Counted from the stretch's first letter, positions 26,706 to 42,422 are shown. The stretch is 64,000 nucleotides of DNA from Ignavibacteriota bacterium (GCA_003142475.1 PLMK01000006.1:10225-74224), one strand, 5' to 3'. The notes: generated by a model not told the origin, from the letters alone. Program-made: numbers and translations.

Positions 26706-28127
26706 ATGGGACCAATAAAGACAGATGTGATCGTTATCGGCGAAGGCATTACCGGACTTTGTATTGCTTACTGGTTGAAGAAACGCGGCATCAATGTTAC
26801 CGTGCTCGCAAAAGATAGTGAAGTGGGTGGAACAATGAAGTCGGTGCAGGAGCAGGGTTTTCTGTATGAAACTGGGGCAAACACCGCGCTGGAAACAACG
26901 TCTCATTTCAAAGAACTTGTTTCCGACTTGAAGTTGGAATCGGAATTTATCTACGCCAACCCGGAAGGCAAGAATCGTTATATACTTCGTGATAATGTTT
27001 TACACTCGATGCCGTTAGGCCCCGGTTCTTTTTTCTTTACCAGACTTTTTTCCACTGCCGCAAAATTTCGTGTGATGAAAGAACCATTCATTGGCCGCGC
27101 AGAGAACGAAGAAAGTATTGCCGAGTTTGTTGAACGAAGATTGGGACGCGAATTTCTCGACTATGCCATCGATCCGTTCGTGGCAGGTGTTTTTGCCGGC
27201 AAGACAGAACAATTAAGCGTACGATCTGCTTTTCCCAAACTGTATGCGCTGGAAGAAAAGTACGGCGGATTGGTAAAGGGTATGATCAAAGGCGCGCAGG
27301 AAAGAAAACAACGGGCAGAGAAAGCAAAAGATCGAGCTGAAATTTTTTCATTCGTTAGCGGAATGCAAACATTACCGCAAGCTATAGGTAATTCACTTGG
27401 CAAGGTGATTTTTTTTAACGCAAAAGTAACCGGTATTCGTAACCTGACTACTGAACGTAATGAACCATCTGATGATCCAGATGCGCGGCGTTATCTTGTT
27501 GAGTACCTCTACAATGGCAAAGAGGAAGAAATAGAAGCAAACGTTGTCATCTTTGCCATTCCAGCATACGATGCTGCACCTATCATCAAATCATTATCGG
27601 TGGAAACAGCGAATGTGTTGTCGTCCATTTATTACTCTCCGGTTATCTCTGTATTCTTGGGTGTGAAGCGAGAAGATGTTCGACATAAGTTGGATGGTTT
27701 TGGATTTCTTATCCCATCAAAGGAAAAGCGAAATATCCTTGGTTGTTTGTGGAATTCGTGTTTATTCGGCAATCGTGCGCCTGCTGGAATGGCTGCGTTA
27801 AATGTTTTCGTTGGTGGTGCTCGACAGCCAGAATTGACCGGTTTGAACGATGGACAAATTATTCAAGAAACGCTTGATGAACTAAAATCTATTATGCAAT
27901 TTTCAGGAAAACCCGTATATTTGAATATAACGCGCTGGCAAAAATCTATTCCACAATACGAAATAGGTTACCAGCGGAAAATGGATATGCTCGCTAAATT
28001 TGAAGAATCCAACCAAGGTGTTTTGCTGGCTGGAAACTATCGAGGCGGCATTTCGGTTGGCGATTGTGTGAAAAATGCATTTGAGATTGCAGAGGACGTT
28101 TCCTCGCAGGTACTCTCAACACGTTAG
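26706..28127 (+). CDS. hemY: FAD-dependent protoporphyrinogen oxidase (HemY/PgoX family)
   Basis: N-terminal dinucleotide-binding VIVIGEGITGLCIAYWL, ~470 aa, C-terminal ...WQKSIPQYEIGY... block typical of protoporphyrinogen oxidase (PPOX). Confidence 0.65.
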   Translation: MGPIKTDVIVIGEGITGLCIAYWLKKRGINVTVLAKDSEVGGTMKSVQEQGFLYETGANTALETTSHFKELVSDLKLESEFIYANPEGKNRYILRDNVLHSMPLGPGSFFFTRLFSTAAKFRVMKEPFIGRAENEESIAEFVERRLGREFLDYAIDPFVAGVFAGKTEQLSVRSAFPKLYALEEKYGGLVKGMIKGAQERKQRAEKAKDRAEIFSFVSGMQTLPQAIGNSLGKVIFFNAKVTGIRNLTTERNEPSDDPDARRYLVEYLYNGKEEEIEANVVIFAIPAYDAAPIIKSLSVETANVLSSIYYSPVISVFLGVKREDVRHKLDGFGFLIPSKEKRNILGCLWNSCLFGNRAPAGMAALNVFVGGARQPELTGLNDGQIIQETLDELKSIMQFSGKPVYLNITRWQKSIPQYEIGYQRKMDMLAKFEESNQGVLLAGNYRGGISVGDCVKNAFEIAEDVSSQVLSTR

Positions 28128-28161
28128 ACTTTGTTTGATGTTATCCTTGAAAGGATTAAAT

Positions 28162-28866
28162 ATGAAAAAAAATATCGCACTTTTCGTTTCATTGTTTAGT
28201 TTTATTACCACCGCAACACTAATGGCGCAGGTACCACAGCCGGTGTATCAAGATGAAGATACTCCACCTGAATCATTCACAATCCTTCTGAAAGATGAAT
28301 GGGCCTACTTGCGTGACGCCGTTGCCCAATTAAAAAAGGAAACAGAAGTAAGAGACGAATTTGAAACGACACCGGAATTTCAAGCACGTGCGGTTCGTTC
28401 TCGTGATTCCCTTCAAAGTAAACTGGATAAGCACCTCCAAGAGACAAAGTTAGATCACAGAATTTTTGGTTTGTGGTTTAAAGCAACACTCGTATCATAC
28501 AACGCGGACGCGGGAATATATTCTGTGAAATGTACGGCGACTGTCGAAGCACCTTACAGCATTCCAAGCGTGGATTGTATTGTTCCATCTAATCCGTATG
28601 TTGATTTAGCAGACAGTATTCGAGGCGGTTATCGGTCATCGAGCATCTTTATGAAGTTTAATCCGGATTTTGAGTGGAAAGTTGGAAGAGGTGAAGCGCG
28701 ATCAGCAAAAGGAAACGAAGCCAACATATTTTTTAAAATTCATTTTATCGTAGGCTTGACGCAGGAAAGATCTGCCAATCATGGACAATTGAAAATAATC
28801 CCCAAAGATATTTCATTGATGAATCGAAGCAATAATTATGTGTATTGGAAAGAAGAAATAAGGTAG
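28162..28866 (+). CDS. hypothetical secreted protein
   Basis: Signal peptide MKKNIALFVSLFSFITTATLMAQ. The track ORF extends to 28075, but the signal-peptide Met is more plausible. Confidence 0.45.
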   Translation: MKKNIALFVSLFSFITTATLMAQVPQPVYQDEDTPPESFTILLKDEWAYLRDAVAQLKKETEVRDEFETTPEFQARAVRSRDSLQSKLDKHLQETKLDHRIFGLWFKATLVSYNADAGIYSVKCTATVEAPYSIPSVDCIVPSNPYVDLADSIRGGYRSSSIFMKFNPDFEWKVGRGEARSAKGNEANIFFKIHFIVGLTQERSANHGQLKIIPKDISLMNRSNNYVYWKEEIR

Positions 28867-28972: not shown

Positions 28973-31222
28973 TTAAATATTATTTTGATTCATTCGACGC
29001 ATCATTGCTATTGTTAAACCGCTAATAATCATCACGGAAGCAATCCACACGAGACTCATAAACGGCTTCACACTAATCTCAGCAATAAGAGTTTCAGGTT
29101 TTTGTATTCCCGTATGCATCATCCCTTTGACGTCAACCACATTAATTTGTACCTGTGACTTCTTTGTACCAGATGCCACGTTCATTGCCACAAGTTGAAA
29201 TCCAAGATGTCCATTCTTGAGATATGCTGTCTTCATCTCAAGATTTCCCTGTGTAGTATATGTTGTTGTTGGTACAATTTCCTGAACATCCTTTTCAGTT
29301 TTGATTTGAAGCACTGCGCCAATGGTGATAGAATTCTCTCCGCCCATCATGCCGCCTTTGCCATGCGCTCCCATATCAAATCTTTGGAAAGTAAGGGTAA
29401 TAGCACCGTAAATCTGTGGTTCATTTTTAACCAGAACAATCAGGTTCTGTTGATTTGTTTCTCCCTGCTCAATGGAAAGCGGCTCAAGATAGAAATCACC
29501 AGCCCACGAACTTACATAGTCTGGAATCCGCATCAGACTATTGTTGTAATTACTTTCGAACATTATTGGCTCGAGGAGTGAGAATTTACCATTGTATTCA
29601 ACGTTGATTGCATACTTTGTCTTCCCATCCTGCGCAGGTTTTGCACCGGTAAAATTCATTTGATAACCAAATGCAGACTTCGGCTGATTCAGTGGAAGCG
29701 CGATAGATTGTTTTTGTCCGTACCTGCCAGATGCGATGATGCCCAAAAATAGAATTGCCAATCCGACATGTGCGAGCGCTCCGCCGATAAAACGTGGTTG
29801 TTCCTTTGCAATTTGGTAACCATGACTGACACTGACAAAGAATGCGAAGAGCGATGTTAGTATGAGCAATGCAGCAAGAATATCATGCAAACCCATTATT
29901 ATGAAAATACCGAGAACGACAAAGGATAAGATGCCGGGAATAATAAGTTTTTTCATAAATAACGGTAGTTCTTCTTTGTTCCATTTTGTACGTAGACTGA
30001 GTCCGAGAAGTAACGTCATTAACACAGCAAGCGGAAGATTGGTACGATCGTAGAACGATGACTCAACCATAGAAGAATAAAAGAGCGGTTTGCTAGTTCC
30101 AAAAAGAATAACTGCTGCGCAGACTCCCATCACAATTGTGGCAATAGTGAGCATAGATTCGCGGTTGAACCATGCACTATGAGGGGTTGCGATTTTCAGT
30201 TCCTTCCACCGTAGAATAGTCATTCCAAATCCACAGAAGGCAATCACTCCTAACCATACGATAAGCAATGAATATGCAAACGTGCCGGGATCCACAAATG
30301 AGTGCACTGAAGCATTTGCAAGAATTCCACTGCGTGTTAAGAACGTACTATAAATAACAAGGAGATATGCCAGTACAGCAAGAATAAAGTTTGTGCGTGC
30401 AAGCTTGCCGGTGAACATCTGAATGAGCATTGTATGAATTAACATAATAGCAACCATCCAGGGAATGAGCGATGAATTCTCCACTGGATCCCAGCCCCAC
30501 CAACCACCCCAGCCCAGCACACCGTACGCCCAATAACCGCCGAGTATAAGACCGACACCAAGCGACATCGCACTGAAAAGTACCCAAGGCAAAGCATTAT
30601 GTAGCCACTTTTCGTACTTTTTCTGCCAGAGAGCGGCAATAGCGAGAACAAATGGAACTGCAAGTGAAGCAAATCCTAAAAACAATATTGGGGGATGGAT
30701 TATCATCCAAAAATTTTGCAATAATGGATTAAGTCCTTTGCCTTCCTGAGGAATAAATCCGGTTGGAACATTGTTCGCTGCTACATCCCAGATTAATTGA
30801 AACGGTGATTTAATTGCAATGAGCAGAAGAAGAAATGAAAGCACAAGCGAGTACGCCGCCATCGCCTCACTTTCTATACGTTCATGCAAGACAGTGCGCT
30901 GCAAAACAAATCCTATAACTGCGGCAAAAAACGCCCAGAGCAAAAAACTGCCTTCTTGTCCGGCCCAGAATGTCGTAATCAATAATTGTATGGGAAGATC
31001 GCGAGAGCTATAGTTTGCAATGTAATTGTACTCAAATCGATGCTGAAGAATGTATACCATAAGCAGTGCAGAAGCTGCGAAGACACCTATGAGGGAAATA
31101 AAAAAGCTTCCGCGCGCAACCAACAACAGCTTCTTTTTTGCTGTCGATATATAATAGAAGTAAGTTGATGCAAGCGTTGCTGCGAACGTAATCCAAATAA
31201 TAACCGAGCCTATCATTTTCAA
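28973..31222 (-). CDS. ccsBA: cytochrome c biogenesis system II protein, fused CcsBA-type (ResB/CcsA)
   Basis: Polytopic membrane protein carrying the CcsA tryptophan-rich WWD motif GWGGWWGWDPVENSSLIPW and conserved His residues. 749 aa with a large C-terminal periplasmic domain. Confidence 0.75.
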   Translation of the reverse strand: MKMIGSVIIWITFAATLASTYFYYISTAKKKLLLVARGSFFISLIGVFAASALLMVYILQHRFEYNYIANYSSRDLPIQLLITTFWAGQEGSFLLWAFFAAVIGFVLQRTVLHERIESEAMAAYSLVLSFLLLLIAIKSPFQLIWDVAANNVPTGFIPQEGKGLNPLLQNFWMIIHPPILFLGFASLAVPFVLAIAALWQKKYEKWLHNALPWVLFSAMSLGVGLILGGYWAYGVLGWGGWWGWDPVENSSLIPWMVAIMLIHTMLIQMFTGKLARTNFILAVLAYLLVIYSTFLTRSGILANASVHSFVDPGTFAYSLLIVWLGVIAFCGFGMTILRWKELKIATPHSAWFNRESMLTIATIVMGVCAAVILFGTSKPLFYSSMVESSFYDRTNLPLAVLMTLLLGLSLRTKWNKEELPLFMKKLIIPGILSFVVLGIFIIMGLHDILAALLILTSLFAFFVSVSHGYQIAKEQPRFIGGALAHVGLAILFLGIIASGRYGQKQSIALPLNQPKSAFGYQMNFTGAKPAQDGKTKYAINVEYNGKFSLLEPIMFESNYNNSLMRIPDYVSSWAGDFYLEPLSIEQGETNQQNLIVLVKNEPQIYGAITLTFQRFDMGAHGKGGMMGGENSITIGAVLQIKTEKDVQEIVPTTTYTTQGNLEMKTAYLKNGHLGFQLVAMNVASGTKKSQVQINVVDVKGMMHTGIQKPETLIAEISVKPFMSLVWIASVMIISGLTIAMMRRMNQNNI

Positions 31223-31386
31223 TCCTTCAATAGAGAGTTATCAATCACTGTTGGTTTACAACAAAAGAGAATACTCAAAGGTTTCATCACAAGGAATAGA
31301 CGGAATAAAACAACAGTGCGGGAGTTCTGGCTCCCGCACTTGTTAAGACAATGGATAATAACGCTTGGGTATTGTTACACCTGCAT

Positions 31387-32670
31387 TTACTTGTTGAGAT
31401 CTGCAATAGAATTATCCAAAAGAGCTTTAACATATTTATAGTTATGAATACCATGACTCTTTTCATATTGAATCTGTTGCAGGTTCCACAATGCACTAGC
31501 CTTGGAAGCCGGAAAAATTACTAACGGTTGTAAGGATGACGCATTAGCGGACCACGTGGAATCACCTGTGACCGCGCTGGCCGTCAGCGTTACCCATGGA
31601 ACAGCTTTTCCACTTTGTGGAAGCGACCACTTCTTCGTTATCGTTGTATCCATCATCATGCTAGCCAATTGTGATGTCTTTGCAATGATTTCATTGCGAA
31701 CCTGTGCCCAATGTGGATCGCTGGCATTGCTTGTTGAAACAGGACTAGAAGAATGACACCCGGTCACATTGCAGCCGTTTACATTGTACGATGGGCTTGT
31801 TGATCCAGAAGCAAGATATCTGACCCAGAATGTATGTCCGCCGTTTTGATTGCTGCTATTAACGGTCGCCATATGGCAATCCTCGCAACCGAGAGTACGC
31901 ATGCCGACCAATGTAGTATGATAGGAATTGTTGTACGGAGTAGGACCTGGAATTTCAACTCCGCCAAAACCTAAAAGAGTTTGTGTCGGTTCACCTGATA
32001 CGTGGTTATTCCATCTGGACGTATAGATCTTTGCTGTATCAGTAGTATTCGTCTTTGATGGATCGGGCTGCCACGATGCTGGTGTCGTGCCGGACTTCCA
32101 CATAAACGTGGAAGTCATACGTGGTTGATGGCACTTCACACATAGATTGGATGCATTACTACTATTCCATTGTTTCGTTGTTTGTCCTGCAACAAGTGTA
32201 AAAATATTCACTACACTGGAGTCACGCACAGTAAAATTAGCACGGCTATGTGGTGAATGGCAAGTAAAACAACCGGGAGGCGAAGCATTAGGATAACCTT
32301 GGTTACAAATTGGTCCGGATGGAGCAATTGGATTGAATGTTTCATTCGTAAAACCTTTGCTATAGCGTTCTAAGAAACCTTCATTCGTATGACAGCCAGC
32401 GCAATCAAATGAATTGCGAGCGAAATTACCGCCCTCAAAATGACTGGAGGCTTCATATTGAACTTCTTTAGTAAGTACACGATATGTTGTATCCAGATCT
32501 GGATTGTGGCAGGTCGCGCATTTAATACCGGGCGCAAAACCCTCGAGGGTGCTCTCTGAAGCATCTTTACCAGCAGGACCAGTAGGACCTTCTTTACAGC
32601 CAGACATAGCCGCAATTACAAAGATACCTATCCCCAAGATAGTAATACCCCAAAATATTTTTTTCACCAT
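31387..32670 (-). CDS. multiheme c-type cytochrome lipoprotein (5 CxxCH + 1 CX4CH)
   Basis: Lipobox AAMSGC. CATCH, CAGCH, CFTCH, CVKCH, CEDCH and CNVTGCH. Ser/Thr/Asn-rich linker regions. Confidence 0.8.
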   Translation of the reverse strand: MVKKIFWGITILGIGIFVIAAMSGCKEGPTGPAGKDASESTLEGFAPGIKCATCHNPDLDTTYRVLTKEVQYEASSHFEGGNFARNSFDCAGCHTNEGFLERYSKGFTNETFNPIAPSGPICNQGYPNASPPGCFTCHSPHSRANFTVRDSSVVNIFTLVAGQTTKQWNSSNASNLCVKCHQPRMTSTFMWKSGTTPASWQPDPSKTNTTDTAKIYTSRWNNHVSGEPTQTLLGFGGVEIPGPTPYNNSYHTTLVGMRTLGCEDCHMATVNSSNQNGGHTFWVRYLASGSTSPSYNVNGCNVTGCHSSSPVSTSNASDPHWAQVRNEIIAKTSQLASMMMDTTITKKWSLPQSGKAVPWVTLTASAVTGDSTWSANASSLQPLVIFPASKASALWNLQQIQYEKSHGIHNYKYVKALLDNSIADLNK

Positions 32671-32765
32671 AAAAACGCCTTTAGGCTAAAGTAAATAGTT
32701 AATTTTAGTAATTTTTATATTTTTGGGTTTTCGTTTTAAATATCTTATGAATTCTTTCAGTTTTA

Positions 32766-33656
32766 TTATCGAAAATTAAGCACTACTCCACCGGCAAGAT
32801 CAATTTTTCCGTTTATATGCTTTGCTTTGTTTTTAATATTGCCTGAAGCATCCATCACATCTCCATGACATGTATAACATATCGTCAAAGCGGAAGGTTT
32901 ATGACCATTCGGTGGCAAAGTATGACAAGTGGTCGTACTGCCGCAACTTTTTTCTACTGGACCACCATTCCAGCGAGGTGCATAACTAGCACCGGTCATT
33001 ATACTAGTGGTAAACATCGTGGTATCAGGCGAACCTACTTTTGGAAGACGCCACGCTCCATGGCAGAATGTATTCGTGCATGTCATAGAACTTGGATCAT
33101 ATGTCGGGGTAGGTGTTATACCACTGCTTGTGAGATTAGCCAAGGGATCATTCAGAATAACTTCTGCACGTCCATCTGCACTGATATGAGCTGGATCATA
33201 AATACTCGTCGGCATGTGATGGCACGCATCGCATAACATACTATGGGATGAATAGGTCCCGTTGCCGATAAAATGGATTTGATGAGCTCCTACACCATGG
33301 GCTGTATATGAAGTGCTTCCATCGAGAGCCGGTGCGGGGGGCATGCCATGACAGGTTGCACAATTTTGCGGACCACCAGGTGCTGTATGGCAAATATTGC
33401 ATGATTTTCCTGATATCCCTCCAGTATAGTCAGCACCATGACAAGATTGGCAGACGTGCATATCCCAATTATTATTTTGGATCGCTTTGCCATGAAAATT
33501 GGCAGAAGTAGTATCCGTCCACCCTTGTACATGAATTTGCAACTCATCACTCTCTTCTGTCGGCAAATCCTTCTTCAAATCGCTGCATGAGCTAAGGAAA
33601 AGAATAAGCACAAGAGTTGTAAAAATCGAGATTATATAGTGTCTCTTCATATTCAA
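32766..33656 (-). CDS. multiheme c-type cytochrome lipoprotein (5 CxxCH + CX4CH/CX5CH)
   Basis: Lipobox FLSSCS. CQSCH, CNICH, CATCH, CDACH, CYTCH, CTNTFCH and CGSTTTCH. Confidence 0.8.
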   Translation of the reverse strand: MNMKRHYIISIFTTLVLILFLSSCSDLKKDLPTEESDELQIHVQGWTDTTSANFHGKAIQNNNWDMHVCQSCHGADYTGGISGKSCNICHTAPGGPQNCATCHGMPPAPALDGSTSYTAHGVGAHQIHFIGNGTYSSHSMLCDACHHMPTSIYDPAHISADGRAEVILNDPLANLTSSGITPTPTYDPSSMTCTNTFCHGAWRLPKVGSPDTTMFTTSIMTGASYAPRWNGGPVEKSCGSTTTCHTLPPNGHKPSALTICYTCHGDVMDASGNIKNKAKHINGKIDLAGGVVLNFR

Positions 33657-33665
33657 TTCGCTCTA

Positions 33666-34877
33666 TTATCGGTGTTGATGGCAATAACCGCAAAATTTTT
33701 GTCCTCTAACACCACTTGGCCGCGCATTGGAATCTGTATGGCACATATAGCATGTCGCACCAGGATCATCATGCCAGCTCCCATGATTACCGGACATAAA
33801 TCCGGGGTCATGAGTTTTTGGATCTGTACCTTTGATGCCGTCAGGATCGTTATGACACGTGATGCATACCGGATCGGTGCCTTCTGAGCCATGACATGCT
33901 GCACACGACTCAATGTCACGTCTTGCCAAGCGGGCATGTTCACCGCCGCCGCTTCCAACTCCTAGCGTTGTAAATCCAGCTACTGCATGTGATGCCGGCT
34001 TGAATGCACTTTGATTTATATTGCCTCCGGCTTCATGACATGTTGAACAATATTTTTCTGAGCTGTGGCAAGTTTGACATTCCAATGCCTTACCCTTTGC
34101 GGCAATACCATGTGTGAAGCGGAAATTCAAATCGTGTATTTTTGTCAAACGCATTTCTTGTCCTCGATCGATTGCTGTGAGACGCGGCGATCGTTGTGAT
34201 GTAAGATTGCGTCCCGGCACATCTACTTTTATTAATTCCGATCCGTTGTGACAATCGATACAGGTTTCTTGCGAGTGGCAAACGCCGCACTTGGCATCAC
34301 CAAGCCGCGCTAATCGTTTATGTTCATGGATAAAATTTGTACGATTGTGCTCTACAGGACGCAGCGACGCAAAATTGGTATGGCACTTCTCACATGCACC
34401 TGTTGCTTTCGTATCGTTGTGGCAGGAGTTGCATGTTGCCATTGCAGGTACAAGTTCTCCGGTTGCAACACCGGCTTTATCGAGAACAGTATGACATGTT
34501 TCGCATGTTACTTTTTGATCTTCCACATGCTGTTGATGTGAGAACATCAGTTCGCGTATAGGATTTAGTGTCGCTGTATATATTGTAGAATCCGAATTCA
34601 GATGACAATAAGTGCAATTATTCTTCAATGGTTCTTCATGGCAGCTCTTGCAAGCTTCCATCTTCGCAAGAAGATTATCGGATGCTTTTGTGCTCTTTGA
34701 TGCGTCGGTATGGCAATCTATACAGGCGACGCCGGCTTCGCTCACATGGAATTGATGCGAAAATTTTACACCCTTCTGATGTTTATCACCATCGGTTTGT
34801 TCATGTGGTACCAATGCACCGGTGAAGGTAAAAAGCAATGTCAGCACTACGCTGATGAGAAGAAATCCATGCTTCAT
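33666..34877 (-). CDS. periplasmic multiheme c-type cytochrome with 14 CxxCH motifs
   Basis: Signal peptide. 14 CxxCH in 403 aa (about one per 29 aa), a density typical of c7/c3-type poly-triheme cytochromes. Starts 10 nt downstream of the preceding gene. Confidence 0.85.
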   Translation of the reverse strand: MKHGFLLISVVLTLLFTFTGALVPHEQTDGDKHQKGVKFSHQFHVSEAGVACIDCHTDASKSTKASDNLLAKMEACKSCHEEPLKNNCTYCHLNSDSTIYTATLNPIRELMFSHQQHVEDQKVTCETCHTVLDKAGVATGELVPAMATCNSCHNDTKATGACEKCHTNFASLRPVEHNRTNFIHEHKRLARLGDAKCGVCHSQETCIDCHNGSELIKVDVPGRNLTSQRSPRLTAIDRGQEMRLTKIHDLNFRFTHGIAAKGKALECQTCHSSEKYCSTCHEAGGNINQSAFKPASHAVAGFTTLGVGSGGGEHARLARRDIESCAACHGSEGTDPVCITCHNDPDGIKGTDPKTHDPGFMSGNHGSWHDDPGATCYMCHTDSNARPSGVRGQKFCGYCHQHR

Positions 34878-34917
34878 AATAATTGACGTGTTCTTTCGAT
34901 TTGTTGGTATGGTAATC

Positions 34918-36216
34918 TCAGAAAATGTTCAAACGTTCGCCTAAATAATAACTGCCTCGTAAAAAGAGGCGCACATCATTGTTATAAATTTTATTTTGGA
35001 TCCACTGTACCTGCGCATCCAGCGAAAGGGCCGGAATTGGGCGGTACACCGCTCCGACAGCACCGCTTAGAGCATCTGTTATTGGTGCATTGCTGTTTAA
35101 TTTATAGTGTGCATACCCCGCTACAATAGTCGGTGTAAGTTTATTATCAAATAATGGATAACCCGCATTCATAGAAAACGCTGCTAATTCTCCGCCATAA
35201 CCGGTGTTCCAGCTAAAACTTGCCGAGGCGTACTTTATATTGCAGCCAAGTGTAACTTGATTGGAATTGTCATCACCGTATGAAACGGCACCGAACTTCC
35301 CAAATACTTGCCAGTCCTTGCAGATTGCGTATTCGGCGCCAAGTTCATATTCGCTTATCGTGTTATAAGCAAATACCCAGAATATGGAATTATATGAAAG
35401 ATGCGGTTCGCGGTGGATATATTCACCTGTAAGCGAAAACGGTTCCGTTACCCTTACTCGTGTAAAGAATTGAATTCGTGAAAATATTTCCTGATTTAAA
35501 TCGAAATCGCTTCGAGCATATGCAGAGATCATGTCGTAGTCAATGCTGATGTCTCCGCTAATATATTGTTCGGCCGTCGCACTTGGAGATATCTCTGTTA
35601 TAACGGGATTGAAAAGGGAGTCTTTTCTGAGCGCCCAGTACGTTTCAGGTTTAATATTTTTCTGCATATAGCTCAATGATACACGTGCAAAGTCCATCGG
35701 CATACCAATCAACTGTGCGCCGAACATATTATTATTTTTCTGATCACTAATCATCTCAAATTTTTGTCCGGGAGATGGCAGAGCACCATAATAACCGAAC
35801 ACCTTCAATCTTGAATCAAGCAATCGGATTGAAGCGATGCCGCCATCGATTGTGCCGTTACCAACGCCTGCAAAGATCGCTTGACGACCGAGACTGATAT
35901 CGACCATTTCAAATAAGTTTGCGTAATTCAAATAAAAATTATAGAACCGAATTGTACCTTCATTTTTTAACGGACCGGCAAAATCGTTAAACCCTTGCAG
36001 ATACGTATGAAACGAAAGATGCTCACCTGCCAACGCGAGCTGTACTGTCTGGTATCCGAACAGGTGGTTGGATGATTGACCTACTGTATCTTGTTGCTGC
36101 CACGCAGAGGCGGAAGAGACAAGTCGCAATTGAAAAAATTGAGCCGATGTTTCACAGAAAAGAAAAATGAACATCGCCAACATCATTAAAATGCTGCGCT
36201 GCATTGGATGTTTCAT
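34918..36216 (-). CDS. outer-membrane beta-barrel (porin-like) protein within the cytochrome cluster
   Basis: Signal peptide, alternating amphipathic beta-strand pattern, and C-terminus ...LGERLNIF ending in Phe (outer-membrane beta-signal). 432 aa. Confidence 0.65.
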   Translation of the reverse strand: MKHPMQRSILMMLAMFIFLFCETSAQFFQLRLVSSASAWQQQDTVGQSSNHLFGYQTVQLALAGEHLSFHTYLQGFNDFAGPLKNEGTIRFYNFYLNYANLFEMVDISLGRQAIFAGVGNGTIDGGIASIRLLDSRLKVFGYYGALPSPGQKFEMISDQKNNNMFGAQLIGMPMDFARVSLSYMQKNIKPETYWALRKDSLFNPVITEISPSATAEQYISGDISIDYDMISAYARSDFDLNQEIFSRIQFFTRVRVTEPFSLTGEYIHREPHLSYNSIFWVFAYNTISEYELGAEYAICKDWQVFGKFGAVSYGDDNSNQVTLGCNIKYASASFSWNTGYGGELAAFSMNAGYPLFDNKLTPTIVAGYAHYKLNSNAPITDALSGAVGAVYRPIPALSLDAQVQWIQNKIYNNDVRLFLRGSYYLGERLNIF

Positions 36217-36326
36217 TGGTCGTCTATTATATGTGGTCGTGAATATACAAAACGCAAATAATTGAGCGCCTCAGTCTATTATTTCCAAGACGCCCGACCA
36301 AACAATTGGAATATTTATTCCAGCTA

Positions 36327-36845
36327 TTATCCTTTGGGAATTGGATGCTTAATCTTTGCCCACATTTCATCAAATTTAAAGGGCTTATAGGATGGACTTT
36401 TCTCGTTGTGGCATGTCTTGCATTTTTTTTCAATCGCTCCCTTATCTTTGAATTCCATTAAGCCCGCAGTAATTGCTTTTGCGTTATCTTTCATAATTGA
36501 AAAAGCCTTGTATGCTGAACCCGCACCGTGGCAAGTTTCGCATTGCACTCCATCGGCAGTGAGCTTAGTATCAGCTGTAATGGCATGGCACTCGAGGCAT
36601 TCAGGTGATTCATTTGCCGCCTTTTTCAATCCCCTTGCCTTAGTAATTTCGGCTGCTTTAGTCTCAGTTAAAGTTTTATAAGCTTCGGCGTGTTTGCTCT
36701 TCTGCCAAATTTCGAATTGTGCACCTTTCTTTTCGCCTTTATGGCACATACCACACATTTTAGCTCCAATATACTTGTTCTGGGCAAATGTGGAAAGTGA
36801 AAGCAGGAACAAAGTCGCAAGAAGAAATGTAATCGCCTTCTGCAT
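36327..36845 (-). CDS. periplasmic tetraheme c-type cytochrome
   Basis: Signal peptide. CGMCH, CLECH, CETCH, CKTCH. 172 aa, Lys-rich. Confidence 0.8.
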   Translation of the reverse strand: MQKAITFLLATLFLLSLSTFAQNKYIGAKMCGMCHKGEKKGAQFEIWQKSKHAEAYKTLTETKAAEITKARGLKKAANESPECLECHAITADTKLTADGVQCETCHGAGSAYKAFSIMKDNAKAITAGLMEFKDKGAIEKKCKTCHNEKSPSYKPFKFDEMWAKIKHPIPKG

Positions 36846-37074
36846 ATGAGACTCTCCTTTTATTTAATTCTTAATTAATAATAATATTTGCTAATGATGA
36901 CAGGAATTGTTTTTTCTACGTTCAGCCGGCGTGCATATACGTATAAATATGGTAAAAATAAATGTAGAAAACACCAACTTAAAATCCGTAAATTTGCCAT
37001 AACCTAATATACATATTAGTTTCTCTTCGATCACAATCTTCCCTAATTATTATCGTTTATAAAACCAAATTTAA

Positions 37075-38583
37075 CTACTCTTCTGCGTTATGGCAGTCGC
37101 TACAATTTATTTCTTTCCATGAATCTCCGATGTCTACAGGATGTTGGTATTGGACACCATCCAGCGAAACACTGTTTTCTCCTTTTCCAAAACTCTGAGC
37201 AAGAATTGTATGACAAACAGAACATTCGTTCGTGAGGATTTTCCCATCTTCTCTAATATGTTTATTATCATGGCATCGGAAACAACCTTTATAAAAAAGG
37301 TGACCAATATTGTTTGGAAAATGTCGCCATGTGACAGCCATTGTTGGAAAGTAATTTCGCGCATAAAACTTTTGGACTGTTGAAACCATCTGGCTAATTG
37401 CTGCGCTTTTTTCTGAAGCAACCTGAGGATAATTCGTTTTGTAATATCCTTCAATCGCAAGCCGGATACTATCCTGTGCGACATTTGAAGAAGAATATGT
37501 TTGATCAAGTGCCTTGACAGCAATGCTTTTTGCATATGGTAACTTTGAATCTATCAATCCGGCTGATATAACATGATCTACCGTCGGTACCGGGGGATGA
37601 TAGATGTGCGAGGGACGATTATGACAATCGATGCAATCCATCGTGCGTTTTTCTAACAATGCTAACGAATCTTCGGTGATAGGATTTTCGAGGTTGCGAT
37701 AGATATGTTCAGTTCCGTCTTTTTTACTTTTTACTTTAATCCATGGAATAATTTGACGCTGCCTATCTGCCGGTGCGTACGTAATTGCATTTGCAATATT
37801 CATGTTCCAATGAATACCTCCCGAAAGTCCGGTTTCTTCGTTTCCCCCGCCAACTTTGATAAGTAAATCCAAATTCCATCGTGTATTGGTTTCATCAGAG
37901 AGAAAATACGATTTCGATACACGCATTTCGCTAAAGAAATGCTTCGGCCAATGACATTGCTCGCATGTTTCTTGTGCTGGTCGAAGATTCTCGATTGGTG
38001 TGGCAATAGGGCGTGAATATTTATTGAAGATAGTGGAATACACCTGATATGCGCCGGAGAGCTTAGAGCGTACAAACCATCCAGCACCGGGACCTATGTG
38101 GCATTTTGCACAACCGACATGCGCATGTGGCGAACTGTTATAAGCTGTATATTCCGGCTCCATAACTTTATGGCACATAGTTCCACAGAATTCATCGGAA
38201 TCAGTATACTCGTAAGCTTTGAAACTGCCGAAGGCTGAGAAAATTAAGAGCAGCAATGCACCAAATGAAAACCAAAAGAACGCATTCCGTTGCTTTGGAT
38301 CATTTAAATCAATACGTGGTAATTTGAGATCTTGCGGCAGTCCTTGTTTCTCACGTCTGTGCTCACGCCAAATACCATAGAACACAAGTATAAGTCCAAA
38401 GAGAACGAATATTGGAAGAATAATAAATGTAAGAATGCCTATGTAGGGTTTCTGCTCTCCTTCAAACAGATCAAGGACAGTCAAGAAGAGCACAAGTCCG
38501 AAACTCACCGATGCAATTGCCGCACCGATCAGTGTCCGCAAATTATAAAATGCCGGCGGGAAAATGCGCTTCATATATTTCAT
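37075..38583 (-). CDS. inner-membrane multiheme c-type cytochrome (7 haem motifs), ImcH/NapC-NirT-like putative quinol dehydrogenase
   Basis: Two N-terminal transmembrane helices, then CGTMCH (CX3CH) plus CAKCH, CEQCH, CIDCH, CFRCH, CSVCH, CSDCH. About 500 aa. Confidence 0.6.
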   Translation of the reverse strand: MKYMKRIFPPAFYNLRTLIGAAIASVSFGLVLFLTVLDLFEGEQKPYIGILTFIILPIFVLFGLILVFYGIWREHRREKQGLPQDLKLPRIDLNDPKQRNAFFWFSFGALLLLIFSAFGSFKAYEYTDSDEFCGTMCHKVMEPEYTAYNSSPHAHVGCAKCHIGPGAGWFVRSKLSGAYQVYSTIFNKYSRPIATPIENLRPAQETCEQCHWPKHFFSEMRVSKSYFLSDETNTRWNLDLLIKVGGGNEETGLSGGIHWNMNIANAITYAPADRQRQIIPWIKVKSKKDGTEHIYRNLENPITEDSLALLEKRTMDCIDCHNRPSHIYHPPVPTVDHVISAGLIDSKLPYAKSIAVKALDQTYSSSNVAQDSIRLAIEGYYKTNYPQVASEKSAAISQMVSTVQKFYARNYFPTMAVTWRHFPNNIGHLFYKGCFRCHDNKHIREDGKILTNECSVCHTILAQSFGKGENSVSLDGVQYQHPVDIGDSWKEINCSDCHNAEE

Positions 38584-38784
38584 CCTCTATTCGATGCACG
38601 ATGATAAGCATATTTTTCTGATTGCTTGTTGGTGATATTTCATTTTGTATTCTTTTCAGAATCTACGCTGATCATCACGTTACTTTCTTTTAGCTTCTTA
38701 CACTTTATTGTCTCCAACTCCGATAAATATTTGTCTACTATTTCAGCTACGAGGATTGTGACTTTGAGCCAAACAGATAGATAT

Positions 38785-40092
38785 CTAACACTTAGGATTT
38801 TGTAAATATTCTTCAAGCATCTGACGAAACGAAGGGTGCGCTATCGCAATGAGTGCTTCCGCACGCTGGTGCAGATTTTTTCCATGAAGAGAGGCTACAC
38901 CATATTCCGTCACTACATAATGTACATCTGCCCGTGAAGTAACTACTCCGGCGCCGGACTGTAGCTGGGGTACGATGCGAGATACTGTTCCCTTCTTCGT
39001 AGTTGAGGACAAGGCAATGATCGGTTTGCCTCCTTTTGAATGAGCAGCTCCGCGCACAAAATCCACTTGTCCGCCGAAACCACTATAAATTTTAGTGCCG
39101 ATAGAATCAGCACATACCTGCCCCGTAATATCCACCTCGATACAGGAATTTATCGCAACCATTTTATCGTTTTGCGCTATAATAAAAGGATTGTTTGTAT
39201 AATCGCAAGGATGTATTTCGAACAGTGGATTGTTGTGAACATAGTCGTACAATTTTTTAGTGCCCATAACAAAGGTTGCAACAACCTTGCCCGAATGAAT
39301 CGTTTTTTTCTGACTTGTGATAATGCCTTTTTCAATTGCTTCTACTACGCCGTCGGAAATCATTTCTGTGTGAATACCCAAATGCTGTTTGCCTTCGATA
39401 CGTGCAAGCACAGCATCCGGAATGCCGCCGATACCCAATTGAAGCGTTGCTCCATCTTCAATAATTGGAGTAATAAAATCTGCAATTTTTGCTTCGATAT
39501 CTGAAGCTGTCGTCGGTTTTAATTCCATAATGGGAATAGAACATTCAACAATTTTATGAACTCGTGAAACGTGTATGAATACATCGCCTAAAGTACGCGG
39601 CATGCACTCATTCACTTGTGCTATAACAATCTTCGCATTTTCTGCCGCTGCTTTCGAAGCAGCGCATTCAACACCAAAACTCATAAAACCATGTGCATCG
39701 GGCGGCGAAACATGAATGAACGCAACATCGAGAGGTATGTATTCATCACAAAATAATGACGGGACCTGCGAAAGATGAATTGGTACATAATCAGAAATTC
39801 CATCAGCAATAGATTGACGGTCACCGGGACCAACAAAAAACGAGTTGTGCCGGAAATGGTTATTCATGTCCGGCTTGGAAAGCGGGTCGCCTCCAAATAA
39901 TAAAATATGATTGACTTCAACGTTTGAAAGTTCCTGCGCACGTTTTGCCAGCGCTTCTGTCAATAGAAGAGGCGTTGCCGCGTTGCCGCTGAGAAAAATC
40001 CGGTCATTCGATTTGACAACCTTGACCGCTTCCTCAACTGTCACAACTTTCGACTTGTATTGATCAAGCCAATTCATAATTATTCCTATCAA
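38785..40092 (-). CDS. acetyl-CoA hydrolase/transferase family protein (4-hydroxybutyrate/succinyl-CoA:acetate CoA-transferase-like)
   Basis: Full-length family similarity (GGQVDFVRGA..., ...SGFGGQ...). 435 aa. Confidence 0.7.
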   Translation of the reverse strand: MIGIIMNWLDQYKSKVVTVEEAVKVVKSNDRIFLSGNAATPLLLTEALAKRAQELSNVEVNHILLFGGDPLSKPDMNNHFRHNSFFVGPGDRQSIADGISDYVPIHLSQVPSLFCDEYIPLDVAFIHVSPPDAHGFMSFGVECAASKAAAENAKIVIAQVNECMPRTLGDVFIHVSRVHKIVECSIPIMELKPTTASDIEAKIADFITPIIEDGATLQLGIGGIPDAVLARIEGKQHLGIHTEMISDGVVEAIEKGIITSQKKTIHSGKVVATFVMGTKKLYDYVHNNPLFEIHPCDYTNNPFIIAQNDKMVAINSCIEVDITGQVCADSIGTKIYSGFGGQVDFVRGAAHSKGGKPIIALSSTTKKGTVSRIVPQLQSGAGVVTSRADVHYVVTEYGVASLHGKNLHQRAEALIAIAHPSFRQMLEEYLQNPKC

Positions 40093-41225
40093 GCTTTATT
40101 GAGCGGAGAGTTGAGTAATGTTTGAATGTCTTCTGCTTTTAAATCGAATGCCTTGGCGGAAGCGTTGTTCGTACAACATCCGCGGAATGTGCATACTCCC
40201 TTAGAAAGTCCGACATCAGCACGAAGCACTTGTTCCATTCCAAGTTCAGTCGCTTCTCTCAAGAACGGAAGAAGAACATTTGTCCATCCAACAGTTGCAG
40301 TGCGCGGGACTAATGCAGGTGTATTGGGAACACAATAATGCACTATGCCATGAGTAATATAAACAGGATCGGTTATTGTCGTTGGACGGCTCGTTTCAAT
40401 ACAACCGCCTTGATCAATGGAAATATCAACAATAACAGAACCGGGTTTCATCTGTTTCACTAAATCTTCAGAAACTAAGTGTGGCGTCTTTTCCCCTTTT
40501 AATAGAACAGCTCCAATAAGCGCATCTGCTTCCCGCACTGCACACTCAATATTATATTGATCAGAAACGGCAGTGGCAATTCTCCACTGAAACAAATTCT
40601 CCACTTCGCGCAGGCGGCCGATGTTCTTGTCAATAATCATCACTTTCGCCCCAAGTCCGAGTGCAACACGCGCAGCGGTGCGTCCCACAGTTCCAGCGCC
40701 AAGAATGAGCACATCGGCGGCAGGTACACCGGGAACACTTCCCAAGAGTACACCGCGTCCGCCTTGGCGTGCTTGCAAATAGTGCGCAGCTACTTGAATC
40801 GAAATTTGCCCGGCAATTTCTGCCATGGTCTGAACTATCGGTAGTTCACAATGTTCATTTTCTATCAATTCATATCCGATTGCAGTGATTTTTTTTTCTA
40901 GAAATGTTTCTATTGTTTTACGTTTGGAAATGGCGAGGTGCAATGCTGAAAAAAAGGTCTGTCCTTCGTGCAAAAGTTTTAGTTCCGAATCAGCTGGCGG
41001 TGCAATTTTCAAAACTATATCTGAACGATTAATAACTTCTTCCGGACTGTACACAATGACGGCGCCTGCATTGCTGTATTCATCGTCCGTAAAGAAACTA
41101 AGTGCTCCAGCATTCCGTTCTACATACACAATAGCGCCCAAGCTCACTAATGTTTGCACGCCACCTGGCGTCAGTGCTACGCGTCGTTCCGATGGAGCTA
41201 TTTCTTTCAGTATGCCGATGTTCAT
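40089..41225 (-). CDS. alanine dehydrogenase/PNT-family NAD(P)-dependent dehydrogenase
   Basis: N-terminal KEIAPSERRVALTPGGV and Rossmann LILGAGTVGRTAARVALGLGAKV. ATGA overlap with the downstream CoA-transferase. Confidence 0.65.
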   Translation of the reverse strand: MNIGILKEIAPSERRVALTPGGVQTLVSLGAIVYVERNAGALSFFTDDEYSNAGAVIVYSPEEVINRSDIVLKIAPPADSELKLLHEGQTFFSALHLAISKRKTIETFLEKKITAIGYELIENEHCELPIVQTMAEIAGQISIQVAAHYLQARQGGRGVLLGSVPGVPAADVLILGAGTVGRTAARVALGLGAKVMIIDKNIGRLREVENLFQWRIATAVSDQYNIECAVREADALIGAVLLKGEKTPHLVSEDLVKQMKPGSVIVDISIDQGGCIETSRPTTITDPVYITHGIVHYCVPNTPALVPRTATVGWTNVLLPFLREATELGMEQVLRADVGLSKGVCTFRGCCTNNASAKAFDLKAEDIQTLLNSPLNKA

Positions 41226-41462
41226 GCCGATAATCCTTCCTATAATATATTTCTTGCCGTACCTTAGAAAATGATTATGTGAAGTGCAAGATGCATTCTC
41301 AGTTTGCTATGATTCTATTTTATAATGGTACTGTGAAGGAAAAAAGGTAATAATATTTAAGGTTGACACGTTGAAGTTCTTTGGTCTTCATACCAGAACC
41401 TCCGTTCAAAATTCATAGGAATAATATTTCTAAATAAGAATATGCTCTTTGTTTAAGCAGTC

Positions 41463-41786
41463 TTACAAGAATTCAGGATTGCATTCAGAGATGACGCCAT
41501 TACTTACTTGACCGCAGGCGCGGATTTCATTCAGTTTCTGATTAATGTGCAGCACAATGCGACTCTTTTCTTCTAAAAGTTCACGTACAAAAGAATTCAC
41601 AGCCGGATAATCGCATTCCGTCATAATTGTCTCATAGAATTGGATCATCTCTGCTTCTTTTCGCATTGCCTCAGTCAACATTTTACATGTGATACGACAG
41701 TCATGGTTGCATTTCGCATTACCAGACTCAATTGCATGTTCACTCCATGCTTGAATTGCGGATTGTGTGTTTTCTATCTGCTTCAT
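41463..41786 (-). CDS. hypothetical small Cys-containing protein
   Basis: ORF is translationally coupled (4-nt overlap) to the OFOR gamma subunit. Six Cys in 107 aa. Confidence 0.35.
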   Translation of the reverse strand: MKQIENTQSAIQAWSEHAIESGNAKCNHDCRITCKMLTEAMRKEAEMIQFYETIMTECDYPAVNSFVRELLEEKSRIVLHINQKLNEIRACGQVSNGVISECNPEFL

Positions 41787-42358
41787 CGTACCACCATTTC
41801 AGTTGCCACTTGTATTGCTAATTCTTTACCTCGTGCTAAAGCTTGCTCATTGAGAGGAATCAAATGTTGTCTATGCGGAGGCAGGACACTGTGTAGAGCA
41901 CTTATTACATGTTCCAACTTTACAATAGGACGCATCTCAAGGAAAGCGCCGAGTAAAATCATGTTTGCCACTTGTTTACTCTTGAGTTTTTGAGCTTCTT
42001 CTAATCCGGGAATGGCAAGAACCTCAATGTCTTTTCTCGACGGCGGACGAAGTATCGTGGATTTTTCATAGATCAAAATGCCACCCGGTTTCACAGCATT
42101 TTCAAATTTTTCAATCGACGGCTGATTTAATACAATTGCAGTATCAAACTTCGTGATAATAGGAGAACTGATGCGTGAATCAGAAACTATTACAGTGCAA
42201 TTCGCTGTGCCGCCGCGCATCTCAGGGCCGTACGAAGGCATCCAACTCACTTCTTTCTTTCCTTCCATTGCAGCGTATGCAATGATTTGTCCCATTGAAA
42301 GAACGCCCTGACCGCCAAAGCCGGCAATAATTATTTCTTGAGTCATGCTCATATTCAT
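41783..42358 (-). CDS. 2-oxoacid:ferredoxin oxidoreductase, gamma subunit
   Basis: IIIAGFGGQGVLSMGQIIAYAAM...GPEMRGG, typical of PorG/KorC. Confidence 0.85.
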   Translation of the reverse strand: MNMSMTQEIIIAGFGGQGVLSMGQIIAYAAMEGKKEVSWMPSYGPEMRGGTANCTVIVSDSRISSPIITKFDTAIVLNQPSIEKFENAVKPGGILIYEKSTILRPPSRKDIEVLAIPGLEEAQKLKSKQVANMILLGAFLEMRPIVKLEHVISALHSVLPPHRQHLIPLNEQALARGKELAIQVATEMVVR

Positions 42359-42422
42359 AATCGCTTTATTATCTAAGAATTTATTGTTTCACCATCTTTA
42401 CAGATTTCTATGATATTCCAAA

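Follow-up and report, generated by a model that had tools for sequence, protein, structure and literature searches.

Gene content and haem motifs of the cluster

The window, that is, the whole stretch of DNA that was analysed, comprises 64,000 nucleotides from an uncultured Ignavibacteriota bacterium of peat (GCA_003142475.1, PLMK01000006.1:10225-74224). Seven co-oriented open reading frames lie within 9.6 kb of it (28973-38583), as had been proposed from the sequence alone; all are on the minus strand, and the intergenic gaps measure 9-229 nt. They encode an ImcH-like cytochrome (g1), a 4-haem cytochrome (g2), a beta-barrel (g3), a 14-haem cytochrome (g4), two lipoprotein cytochromes (g5 and g6) and a CcmF-like protein (g7). 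The sequence-only reading had placed the barrel after the 14-haem gene, whereas it is situated between the 4-haem and 14-haem genes. The surrounding genes include a 2-oxoacid:ferredoxin oxidoreductase and an acetyl-CoA hydrolase/transferase, and are of the type found in a fermentative or anaerobic heterotroph.

The number of haem motifs, estimated earlier at about 38 in five cytochromes, is 38 when atypical forms are included: 34 CXXCH, one CX3CH (in g1), two CX4CH (in g5 and g6) and one CX5CH (in g5). With the background composition of the window, approximately 0.004 CXXCH would be expected by chance per 1800 residues, and the 35 other large open reading frames of the window (15,717 residues) contain no CXXCH. 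The motif density of the five cytochromes is far above chance.

The first gene, g1 (37075-38583, minus strand), encodes a 502-aa protein with three N-terminal transmembrane (TM) helices, seen as hydropathy peaks at 18-36, 50-68 and 101-119, a NapC/NirT/NrfH-like region, and a CX3CH motif followed by six CXXCH. Its motifs are found at positions 133 (CGTMCH), 158, 207, 317, 434, 454 and 494. The ImcH protein GSU3259 is 507 aa long and has its motifs at 132, 156, 205, 311, 428, 448 and 486 and its TM segments at 13-35, 45-67 and 100-122 (Shi 2018 Table S3), and its first motif is also CXXXCH (Levar 2014, PMC4251993; likewise PMC6295460). The 25 orthologues of g1 all retain the pattern with CX3CH in first place. 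The Pfam family PF03264 is matched with E 8.7e-10 (39 bits, above the cut-off of 24.1) and the NrfH model TIGR03153 with E 2.7e-13, below its cut-off; the closest PDB match is NrfH (2j7a_C, E 1.5e-5). Judged from its predicted topology and motifs, g1 matches Geobacter ImcH in all architectural features, and its earlier naming as an ImcH-like 7-haem protein, here a putative inner-membrane quinol dehydrogenase, agrees with the TM segments, the motif positions and the NapC/NirT region. Published ImcH homologues share 31-49% identity with the Geobacter group. The accessions of six close homologues of g1 had no match in the list of Shi 2018 Table S3.

The gene that follows, g2 (36327-36845, minus strand), encodes a c554-like tetrahaem cytochrome of 172 aa with a signal peptide, predicted to be periplasmic, which is the positional counterpart of IALB_1840 of Ignavibacterium album. 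It matches the Cytochrome_C554 family (PF13435, E 1.4e-14, Pfam), and its four CXXCH motifs are present in 32 of 32 orthologues.

At the other end of the cluster, g7 (28973-31222, minus strand; 747-749 aa) had been taken for a fused CcsBA. This identity was rejected, since there is no ResB match, and TIGR03144, which aligns just with the WWD region that the two families share, scores 38.5 bits where its cut-off is 187.6. The 749-aa protein instead belongs to the CcmF/NrfE family of System I cytochrome c haem lyases. It has both domains of the family (PF01578, E 1.7e-27, and PF16327 CcmF_C, E 1.1e-19, both above the Pfam cut-offs), the WWD motif WGGWWGWDPVENSSL at position 238, and four conserved His residues, two flanking the WWD motif and two in TM helices. 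These residues (176, 263, 307 and 485) are presumably equivalent to H173, H261, H303 and H491 of E. coli CcmF. Both subfamily models, TIGR03145 (E 1.8e-77) and TIGR00353 (E 3e-72), score below their NCBIfam cut-offs, so that g7 is a divergent CcmF/NrfE member. In 30 loci g7 is syntenic with the cluster, and it is probably the general System I lyase of the cell, not a dedicated one. The interval between g6 and g7 contains a terminator-like hairpin (31315-31340, minus strand), a match to the consensus only, with a 10-bp stem including seven GC pairs and a T-rich tail. It sets g7 apart from the cytochrome genes and was counted against the reading of the cluster as a complete electron-transfer pathway.

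The barrel and its 14-haem neighbour

An outer-membrane beta-barrel of about 430 aa had been expected, and the 432-aa product of g3 (34918-36216, minus strand; counterpart of IALB_1839) does model as one. The model is confident, with 24 strand elements, a barrel over residues 27-428 and no globular domain. For the 22-24 strands of such a barrel, a C-alpha diameter of approximately 39-45 A was computed from geometry. A barrel with fewer than 16 strands, or a plugged one, had been named beforehand as counting against a role in a cytochrome conduit; the predicted barrel is larger than this and unplugged. Pfam searches gave no Plug or TonB_dep_Rec match and no family assignment above cut-off. A TonB-dependent transporter was rejected as an identity for g3, since neither Pfam nor the model has a plug domain.

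Separated from g3 by 40 nt, g4 (33666-34877, minus strand; counterpart of IALB_1838) encodes a cytochrome of 403 aa with 14 CXXCH motifs, or 28.8 aa per haem, in c7/c3-like units. All 14 motifs are kept in 30 of 34 orthologues; 12 His outside the motifs and two Met are also conserved. The protein matches PF14522 (E 1e-18, Pfam), and in the PDB it is related to c7-like domain proteins and to the ActA subunit of ACIII. Weak Pfam matches to domains II/IV of MtrC/MtrF were obtained for both g4 and g6. It is proposed that g4 is a haem wire across the outer membrane and g3 the sheath around it.

In 35 genome loci most of the cluster is preserved in synteny, over a range of 49-87% identity of the barrel; in the Ignavibacterium sp. 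MAG L035 the orthologues occur in the same order at 52-64% identity. The barrel and 14-haem genes adjoin in 34 of the 35 Ignavibacteriota loci, where about 40-150 nt separate them. The pair is also encountered in Fidelibacterota and Handelsmanbacteria, where the barrel has 24-26% and the 14-haem protein 37-38% identity, and where the 14-haem homologues carry 13-14 CXXCH and are encoded beside or near the barrel homologues. This persistent pairing, which reaches other phyla, makes it very improbable that g3 is a general porin or transporter which has nothing to do with the cytochromes and stands among their genes incidentally. Such a protein would fit with the missing family assignment and with the structural matches of g3, which are to generic large barrels only and include substrate porins and TonB-receptor barrels; one distant homologue also bears the UniRef label 'alginate export domain'. 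Against it stands, besides the pairing, that no plug or TonB box domain was detected in g3.

The lipoprotein cytochromes

Two lipoprotein cytochromes had been predicted, and lipoboxes are found in both g5 (LSSC) and g6 (MSGC) and are conserved in their orthologues. The first, g5 (32766-33656, minus strand; 294-296 aa), is the counterpart of IALB_1837 and has five CXXCH, one CX4CH and one CX5CH motif. Its lipobox is followed by a conserved C-S-(D/E)-L-K, and the CxxxxCH/CxxCH domain TIGR01904 is matched at 36.8 bits (cut-off 27). Orthologues of g5 have 31-61% identity and 4-11 CXXCH. The second, g6 (31387-32670, minus strand), is a hexahaem cytochrome of 427 aa with a predicted NrfA/OcwA-type fold and, behind the lipid-anchor Cys, a collagen-like GPxGPxG linker. 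From these features g5 is proposed as an outer-membrane or surface cytochrome, and g6 as a terminal surface reductase. The two genes are the most variable of the set, as would be expected of outward-facing components. Their lipoprotein export signals agree only in part with the Bacteroidetes LES K-(D/E)2, so their surface exposure is regarded as putative.

The best structural matches of g6 are OcwA of Thermincola potens (6i5b) and the S-layer undecahaem cytochrome of Carboxydothermus ferrireducens (6qvm), at 14-19% identity and a TM-score of about 0.38. Both are multihaem cytochromes with the NrfA fold and serve as terminal reductases at the cell surface (PMC6703420). They differ from g6 in having Gram-positive hosts, 9 and 11 haems in place of six, and no lipid anchor. 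Two haems of OcwA are five-coordinate, whereas in the g6 family all six haem motifs and six further invariant His are found; this fits with bis-His electron-transfer haems and is enough for all six. The fold nevertheless belongs to a family of catalytic enzymes, and OcwA does reduce nitrite, albeit slowly (PMC6703420), so that a soluble substrate for g6 is conceivable.

An identity of g6 as NrfA itself was rejected. A motif scan found no CXXCK anywhere in the five cytochromes, in line with the earlier statement that the NrfA-type motif is absent, and the motif aligned to the catalytic haem of NrfA is CAGCH. In profile alignments two catalytic residues of NrfA, the His of RHPEY and the Tyr that follows haem 3 (CH-V-(E/T)-Y), stand opposite non-conserved or different residues of the g6 family, and PRK11125 gives g6 only 11.7 bits, its cut-off being 595. 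Only the fold is NrfA-like.

The wider set does recall the NrfHA/NrfE system, with the likeness of g1 to NrfH, the NrfA fold of g6 and NrfE as the closest match of g7. One could thus imagine a periplasmic reductase for nitrite, hydroxylamine, sulfite or tetrathionate, in which g1 feeds g6, g7 matures g6 and the barrel is merely a porin for the substrate. This appears improbable given the absent CXXCK, the unmatched catalytic residues and the invariant His of g6. All three Nrf-type scores are far below their equivalog cut-offs (50 against 134 and 261 against 927 bits, besides that of PRK11125). In addition, g6 is missing from 13 of the 35 loci, most of which retain the barrel, g4 and g5. Nrf systems have no counterpart to the barrel, the 14-haem protein or the lipid anchors, and the pairing of a 14-haem protein with an unplugged 22-24-strand barrel would be left unexplained. 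Profile searches did not assign the set to a soluble-substrate reductase, as the sequence-only reading had anticipated, the NrfA fold of g6 being common to OcwA and the Carboxydothermus cytochrome; no catalytic subunit for a soluble substrate was found in those Ignavibacteriota loci that were examined in detail.

Proposed electron flow and relation to known conduits

With a probability of roughly three in four, the locus encodes a complete outward Pcc-type extracellular electron-transfer pathway, a reading that the sequence supports well. Menaquinol would be oxidised in the inner membrane by g1, and g2 would shuttle the electrons through the periplasm to g4, which, inside the g3 barrel, would carry them across the outer membrane. 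There, or at the cell surface, g5 (7 motifs) and g6 (6 haems) would take up the electrons and reduce insoluble or macromolecular acceptors, for example Fe(III) minerals or the humic substances of peat. Haem would be attached to the cytochrome apoproteins by g7. The earlier porin-cytochrome interpretation gains from the large unplugged barrel, its conserved pairing with the 14-haem protein and the ImcH architecture of g1.

Electrons might also flow inward, by electron uptake or by oxidation of Fe(II) or reduced humics as in MtoAB/PioAB, and feed the quinone pool or periplasmic oxidases. Porin-cytochrome modules are described as bidirectional in other bacteria (PMC6295460), and in most relatives the locus has a Rieske/cytochrome b complex that includes a multihaem c subunit and is able to run either way. 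The same source reports ImcH homologues so far only in Fe(III) reducers and treats them as quinol oxidases. Moreover, a pair of lipoprotein cytochromes of the surface type is characteristic of reducing systems and usually absent from Mto/Pio clusters (PMC4245776), and the neighbouring genes point to a fermentative or anaerobic heterotroph. Inward flow is therefore considered unlikely, if somewhat less so than a Nrf-like reductase.

An outward pathway of this kind has close parallels. In the Pcc definition of Shi 2014 a barrel gene stands beside a multihaem gene, as g3 does beside g4, and is accompanied by lipoprotein multihaem genes, which g5 and g6 are by their predicted lipoboxes. The Pcc clusters of Geobacter sulfurreducens (OmbB-OmaB-OmcB, ExtABCD and others) likewise have a porin-like barrel gene beside genes for periplasmic multihaem and lipoprotein outer-membrane cytochromes. 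Unlike in the window, the periplasmic partner OmaB has 8 haems instead of 14, and Geobacter imcH is monocistronic and unlinked to conduit genes (Levar 2014, PMC4251993). Shewanella MtrCAB (PDB 6r2q) follows the same principle: its multihaem cytochrome runs through a large barrel, and a lipoprotein cytochrome sits on the outer side. An identity of the cluster as MtrAB(C), which has an MtrB-homologous barrel and a decahaem partner of the MtrA/DmsE family, was rejected; g3 has no detectable sequence homology to MtrB.

The nearest published case is IALB_1840-1837 of I. album, classed as a pcc cluster by Shi, Fredrickson & Zachara 2014 (PMC4245776). [quoted passage not shown] The orthology with the present cluster is based on this published description and on L035. 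The cluster type has thus been in print since 2014, and the present cluster is a further member. Reduction of solid Fe(III) is not known from I. album itself (PMC4245776). Two further papers (PMC6137239, PMC7399161) describe Pcc-like clusters in MAGs of Ignavibacteriales, which come from Fe(III)-reducing sediment and from anode biofilms, and OmbB-like porins in Ignavibacteria.

What the cluster adds is modest: the physical linkage of imcH to the conduit, a putative surface lipoprotein with an OcwA-like fold, and the loss of a Rieske/cytochrome b module. The 2014 account of the I. album cluster has no linked imcH-like gene, second lipoprotein cytochrome or ccmF-like gene. In relatives, the locus also houses CbcL-like, Rieske/cytochrome b/multihaem and NrfCD-like quinol modules; the Rieske/cytochrome b module, found in L035 and most relatives, is absent from the window and was lost in its lineage.

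A more tentative proposal, for which the odds are rather against than for, is that g3/g4 represent a distinct class of outer-membrane electron conduit in the FCB phyla Ignavibacteriota and Fidelibacterota, with further members in Handelsmanbacteria. This class would have no sequence relationship with MtrAB and would lie outside the Geobacter Pcc groups, as the porin (IALB_1839) and cytochrome of I. album do (Shi 2014, PMC4245776), with a lone 14-haem poly-c7 wire serving exchangeable surface lipoproteins of the NrfA/OcwA fold. Levar et al. 2014 (PMC4251993) posed the downstream partners of ImcH as an open question. If the proposal is true, the linkage of imcH would be the first genomic pointer to these partners, here the c554-like tetrahaem cytochrome g2.

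A probable outward-directed conduit and its relatives

Seven minus-strand open reading frames, g1 to g7 in order of transcription, occupy positions 28973-38583 of the window, separated by gaps of 9-229 nt. This cluster is real. Independent metagenome assemblies contain an identical locus in which the genes are called in the same way. The best explanation for it is the porin-cytochrome one: judged from sequence, there is a probability of roughly three in four that these genes encode an outward-directed conduit for extracellular electron transfer. The set opens with g1 (37075-38583, 502 aa), an ImcH-like protein with seven haem motifs, followed by g2 (36327-36845, 172 aa), with four CXXCH motifs, and g3 (34918-36216, 432 aa), a predicted barrel that lacks haem motifs. 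Next are g4 (33666-34877, 403 aa), with 14 CXXCH, g5 (32766-33656, 296 aa) and g6 (31387-32670, 427 aa), with lipoboxes LSSC and MSGC, respectively, and finally g7 (28973-31222, 749 aa), a CcmF-like lyase. The sequence-only reading had put the barrel after both the 4-haem and the 14-haem genes; it actually lies between them. Its figure of about 38 haem motifs holds, as the five cytochromes contain 34 CXXCH, one CX3CH (g1), two CX4CH (g5 and g6) and one CX5CH (g5). The chance rate, calculated with the composition of the window's 35 other large ORFs, is approximately 0.004 CXXCH per 1800 residues, and none of those 35 ORFs contains this motif. A sigma-70 promoter scan, which is ill-suited to Bacteroidota-type promoters, gave no enrichment (25 found versus 27 expected).

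[quoted passage not shown] 2014; PMC4245776). In the literature searched, the IALB locus tags occur in the 2014 paper only, and no experimental follow-up seems to exist there. Clusters of the pcc or OmbB-like type have also been reported from Ignavibacteriales MAGs of Fe(III)-reducing sediments and anode biofilms (Fortney et al. 2018; PMC7399161). The likeness to the I. album cluster, the ImcH-like character of g1 and a linkage of the barrel and 14-haem genes that is kept as far as other phyla all speak for the conduit that was originally proposed.

The basic claim has thus been in print since 2014, the cluster belongs to a known, bioinformatically defined kind, and the advance is incremental. 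It consists of the assignment of the lyase to CcmF, the linkage of imcH to the conduit, the barrel and 14-haem core, the OcwA/NrfA fold modelled for a surface lipoprotein, and the apparent lineage-specific loss of a Rieske/cytochrome b module. Peat, fens, aquifers and anode biofilms commonly harbour Ignavibacteriota, and in such settings methanogenesis faces competition from extracellular respiration that uses iron minerals or humic substances. A compact and self-contained locus with an inner-membrane oxidase, shuttle, conduit, surface cytochromes and haem lyase is a convenient marker for the capacity for extracellular respiration, and is also tractable for heterologous reconstitution.

The barrel protein matched 35 genome loci, all from Ignavibacteriota (49-87% identity); the loci belong to MAGs labelled 'Bacteroidota/Ignavibacteriae' that were recovered from peat, fen, groundwater and lakes. 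In tblastn searches with all seven proteins, the order g1...g2-g3-g4-g5-(g6)-g7 is kept throughout. The number of haem motifs is constant in g1 (25/25 orthologues) and g2 (32/32), while g4 has 14 CXXCH in 30 of 34 orthologues and 9-13 in the other four. Orthologues of g5 are variable, with 4-11 CXXCH and 1-2 CX4CH. The g6 gene was not detected in 13 loci; eight of these have the region intact, and in those eight g5 is longer. The lowest conservation in the set is that of g5 (31-61% identity) and g6 (33-80%), which would suit outward-facing parts that contact the substrate.

The barrel and the 14-haem cytochrome

The AlphaFold2 model of g3, built from an alignment with 61 homologues (pLDDT 83.6, pTM 0.71), begins with a signal helix, after which come 24 strand elements. 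Because two of the elements are short and may belong to a loop hairpin, the barrel is given as 22-24 strands. A small or plugged barrel had been named as evidence against a conduit; the predicted barrel is of this large size, and the model contains no plug or other extra domain. Compared with PDB sequences, the g3 family profile returned only noise (calreticulin at E 0.17).

The barrel family is small, with only 406 members in a profile search of 1.84 billion representatives, and Fidelibacterota and Handelsmanbacteria account for the distant members that carry a name. These barrels are merely 24-26% identical to g3. The Fidelibacterota barrel gene shares 4 nt with the beginning of a gene whose product is a 382-aa cytochrome with 13 CXXCH, one atypical motif and, along its entire length, 38% identity to g4. 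In Handelsmanbacteria, the gene two positions downstream of the barrel encodes a 14-haem protein of 393 aa that shares 37% identity with g4. The persistence of this linkage at such a distance argues strongly that the barrel and the 14-haem cytochrome are physical partners. As a conserved core, the pair extends over three phyla. The g4 protein itself is composed of c7/c3-like units, with 28.8 residues per haem, and its conserved non-motif residues include 12 His and 2 Met, which would provide a sixth ligand for about all 14 haems.

The Fidelibacterota pair (MAG contig JBHIEY010000017.1, locus L040, 1-10779) is located directly downstream of genes for a molybdopterin oxidoreductase, a 4Fe-4S protein and NrfD. 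Additional cytochromes and a protein with an EB_dh domain are encoded there as well. In this locus the same conduit is served by another inner-membrane/periplasmic front end.

Quinol-level entry and the haem lyase

The defining features of ImcH are three TM helices, a stretch of NapC/NirT homology and a series of seven haem motifs that opens with CXXXCH (Levar et al. 2014; PMC4251993). The Geobacter protein, GSU3259, has 507 aa, motifs at 132, 156, 205, 311, 428, 448 and 486, and TM helices at 13-35, 45-67 and 100-122; Ignavibacteria homologues of 496-498 aa share this pattern (Shi et al. 2018, Table S3; PMC6295460). The motifs of g1 are at 133 (CX3CH), 158, 207, 317, 434, 454 and 494, and its TM helices span 18-36, 50-68 and 101-119, close to the GSU3259 layout. 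PF03264 is present, and the sole PDB relative is NrfH. The assignment rests on architecture because the accessions of six clusters of g1 homologues have none in common with the ImcH table of Shi et al. (2018). By this standard, g1 is predicted to be ImcH-like, as the sequence-only reading had it. Shi et al. (2018) list ImcH homologues in Ignavibacteriae and describe imcH as often adjoining cytochrome genes, with no mtrAB/mtoAB reported beside it.

Most relatives have additional modules at the quinol level within this locus. A Rieske protein, a cytochrome b and a 516-aa multihaem c lie between g1 and g2 in 24-27 of the 35 loci, a CbcL-type 765-aa fusion of multihaem c and cytochrome b is clear upstream of g1 in about 12, and two loci have a c7-like cytochrome with a 4Fe-4S protein and NrfD. 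All of them are missing from the 64-kb window, where 36846-37074 and 38584-38784 were compared with two related loci (L003 2274-9103 and L008 3012-8821). The locus is thus a reduced form, with ImcH its sole quinol-level entry. The same reduced layout is found in one relative (L006) and partly in another (L013), and the absence of the Rieske/cytochrome b module suggests a reduction specific to the lineage.

The lyase g7, initially read as a fused CcsBA, instead carries Cytochrom_C_asm and CcmF_C domains. Against the NrfE and CcmF/NrfE models it gives E 1.8e-77 and 3e-72, respectively, both matches falling under the trusted cut-offs, and it has the WWD motif WGGWWGWDPVENSSL and conserved His at 176, 263, 307 and 485, the counterparts of the functional His of E. 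coli CcmF. From these features, g7 is assigned to the CcmF-type lyases. No further ccm genes are found within the 64 kb. A dedicated role for g7 in the atypical CX3-5CH motifs was considered and is not favoured. System I is known to handle CX3CH and CX4CH. In M. roseus, CcmF is expressed, and rises, under aerobic growth (PMC5492636), which suggests that System I is in general use in Ignavibacteria and that g7 is not necessarily dedicated to the cluster. A strong terminator-like hairpin (31315-31340, minus strand; 10-bp stem with 7 GC pairs, T-rich tail) separates g6 from g7, so that g7 may be transcribed apart from the cytochrome genes.

Lipoprotein cytochromes and flanking genes

In g5, a Geobacter-type CxxxxCH/CxxCH domain scores above the cut-off. 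The AlphaFold2 model of g6 (pLDDT 82.4, pTM 0.82) has as its best Foldseek matches Thermincola OcwA and the S-layer undecahaem cytochrome of Carboxydothermus, and so shows, at the level of a prediction, a surface-type lipoprotein with an OcwA/NrfA fold. OcwA is a cell-surface terminal reductase with an NrfA fold (PMC6703420), and the fold of g6 is therefore no argument against an extracellular role.

The fold, together with a weak pass against the Pfam NrfA model (29.6 versus 24.1 bits), raises the alternative of a nitrite-reductase-type site in g6. Across 81 g6 homologues, no variation is seen in the six motifs, in six other His or in M267. A count of six non-motif His fits bis-His ligation of every haem as well as five ligands and a catalytic His; the question of a catalytic haem was therefore judged by profile alignment to NrfA rather than by His count. 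In this alignment, the catalytic CXXCK haem of NrfA is matched with CAGCH, and the catalytic His (RHPEY) and the Tyr after haem 3 are aligned with residues that differ or are not conserved ('efagy' and 'CHQPR'). With this His count and the catalytic residues missing, such a site is unlikely. The cluster contains no CXXCK at all, in keeping with the earlier view that it is not a nitrite reductase operon, and an extracellular conduit is preferred.

The Bacteroidetes lipoprotein export signal, K-(D/E)2, is matched only in part by both lipoproteins (CSDLKKD in g5, CKEGP in g6). Directly after its lipid-anchor Cys, g6 has a collagen-like GPTGPAGK linker (residues 25-36; 32560-32600, minus strand), which may be a flexible tether; the family keeps it as GPxGPxG, and one homologue is annotated 'collagen-like protein'. 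The seventh motif of g5, CGSTTTCH (CX5CH; 32932-32955, minus strand), is a three-residue insertion within a predicted haem-binding motif. Orthologues have CG(S/T)CH there, or CX3CH in two loci, and the gene length is the same in four independent assemblies.

Downstream of the cluster are a HemY-type (Amino_oxidase family) protoporphyrinogen/coproporphyrinogen oxidase-like gene (26706-28127, plus strand) and a convergent gene for a secreted protein of 234-263 aa that lacks a Pfam match (28075-28866, plus strand), both syntenic with the cluster in most relatives. A shared demand may explain why a haem-synthesis gene lies beside the lyase gene and a set of 38 haem sites. An IS1595-family transposase (Zn_ribbon_IS1595 and DDE_Tnp_IS1595; 24801-25718, plus strand) lies about 3 kb downstream of the cluster. 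Directly upstream and co-oriented (38785-44304, minus strand) are genes for an acetyl-CoA hydrolase/transferase, alanine dehydrogenase and 2-oxoacid:ferredoxin oxidoreductase subunits. In many relatives, the acetyl-CoA hydrolase/transferase and alanine dehydrogenase genes keep their synteny with the cluster.
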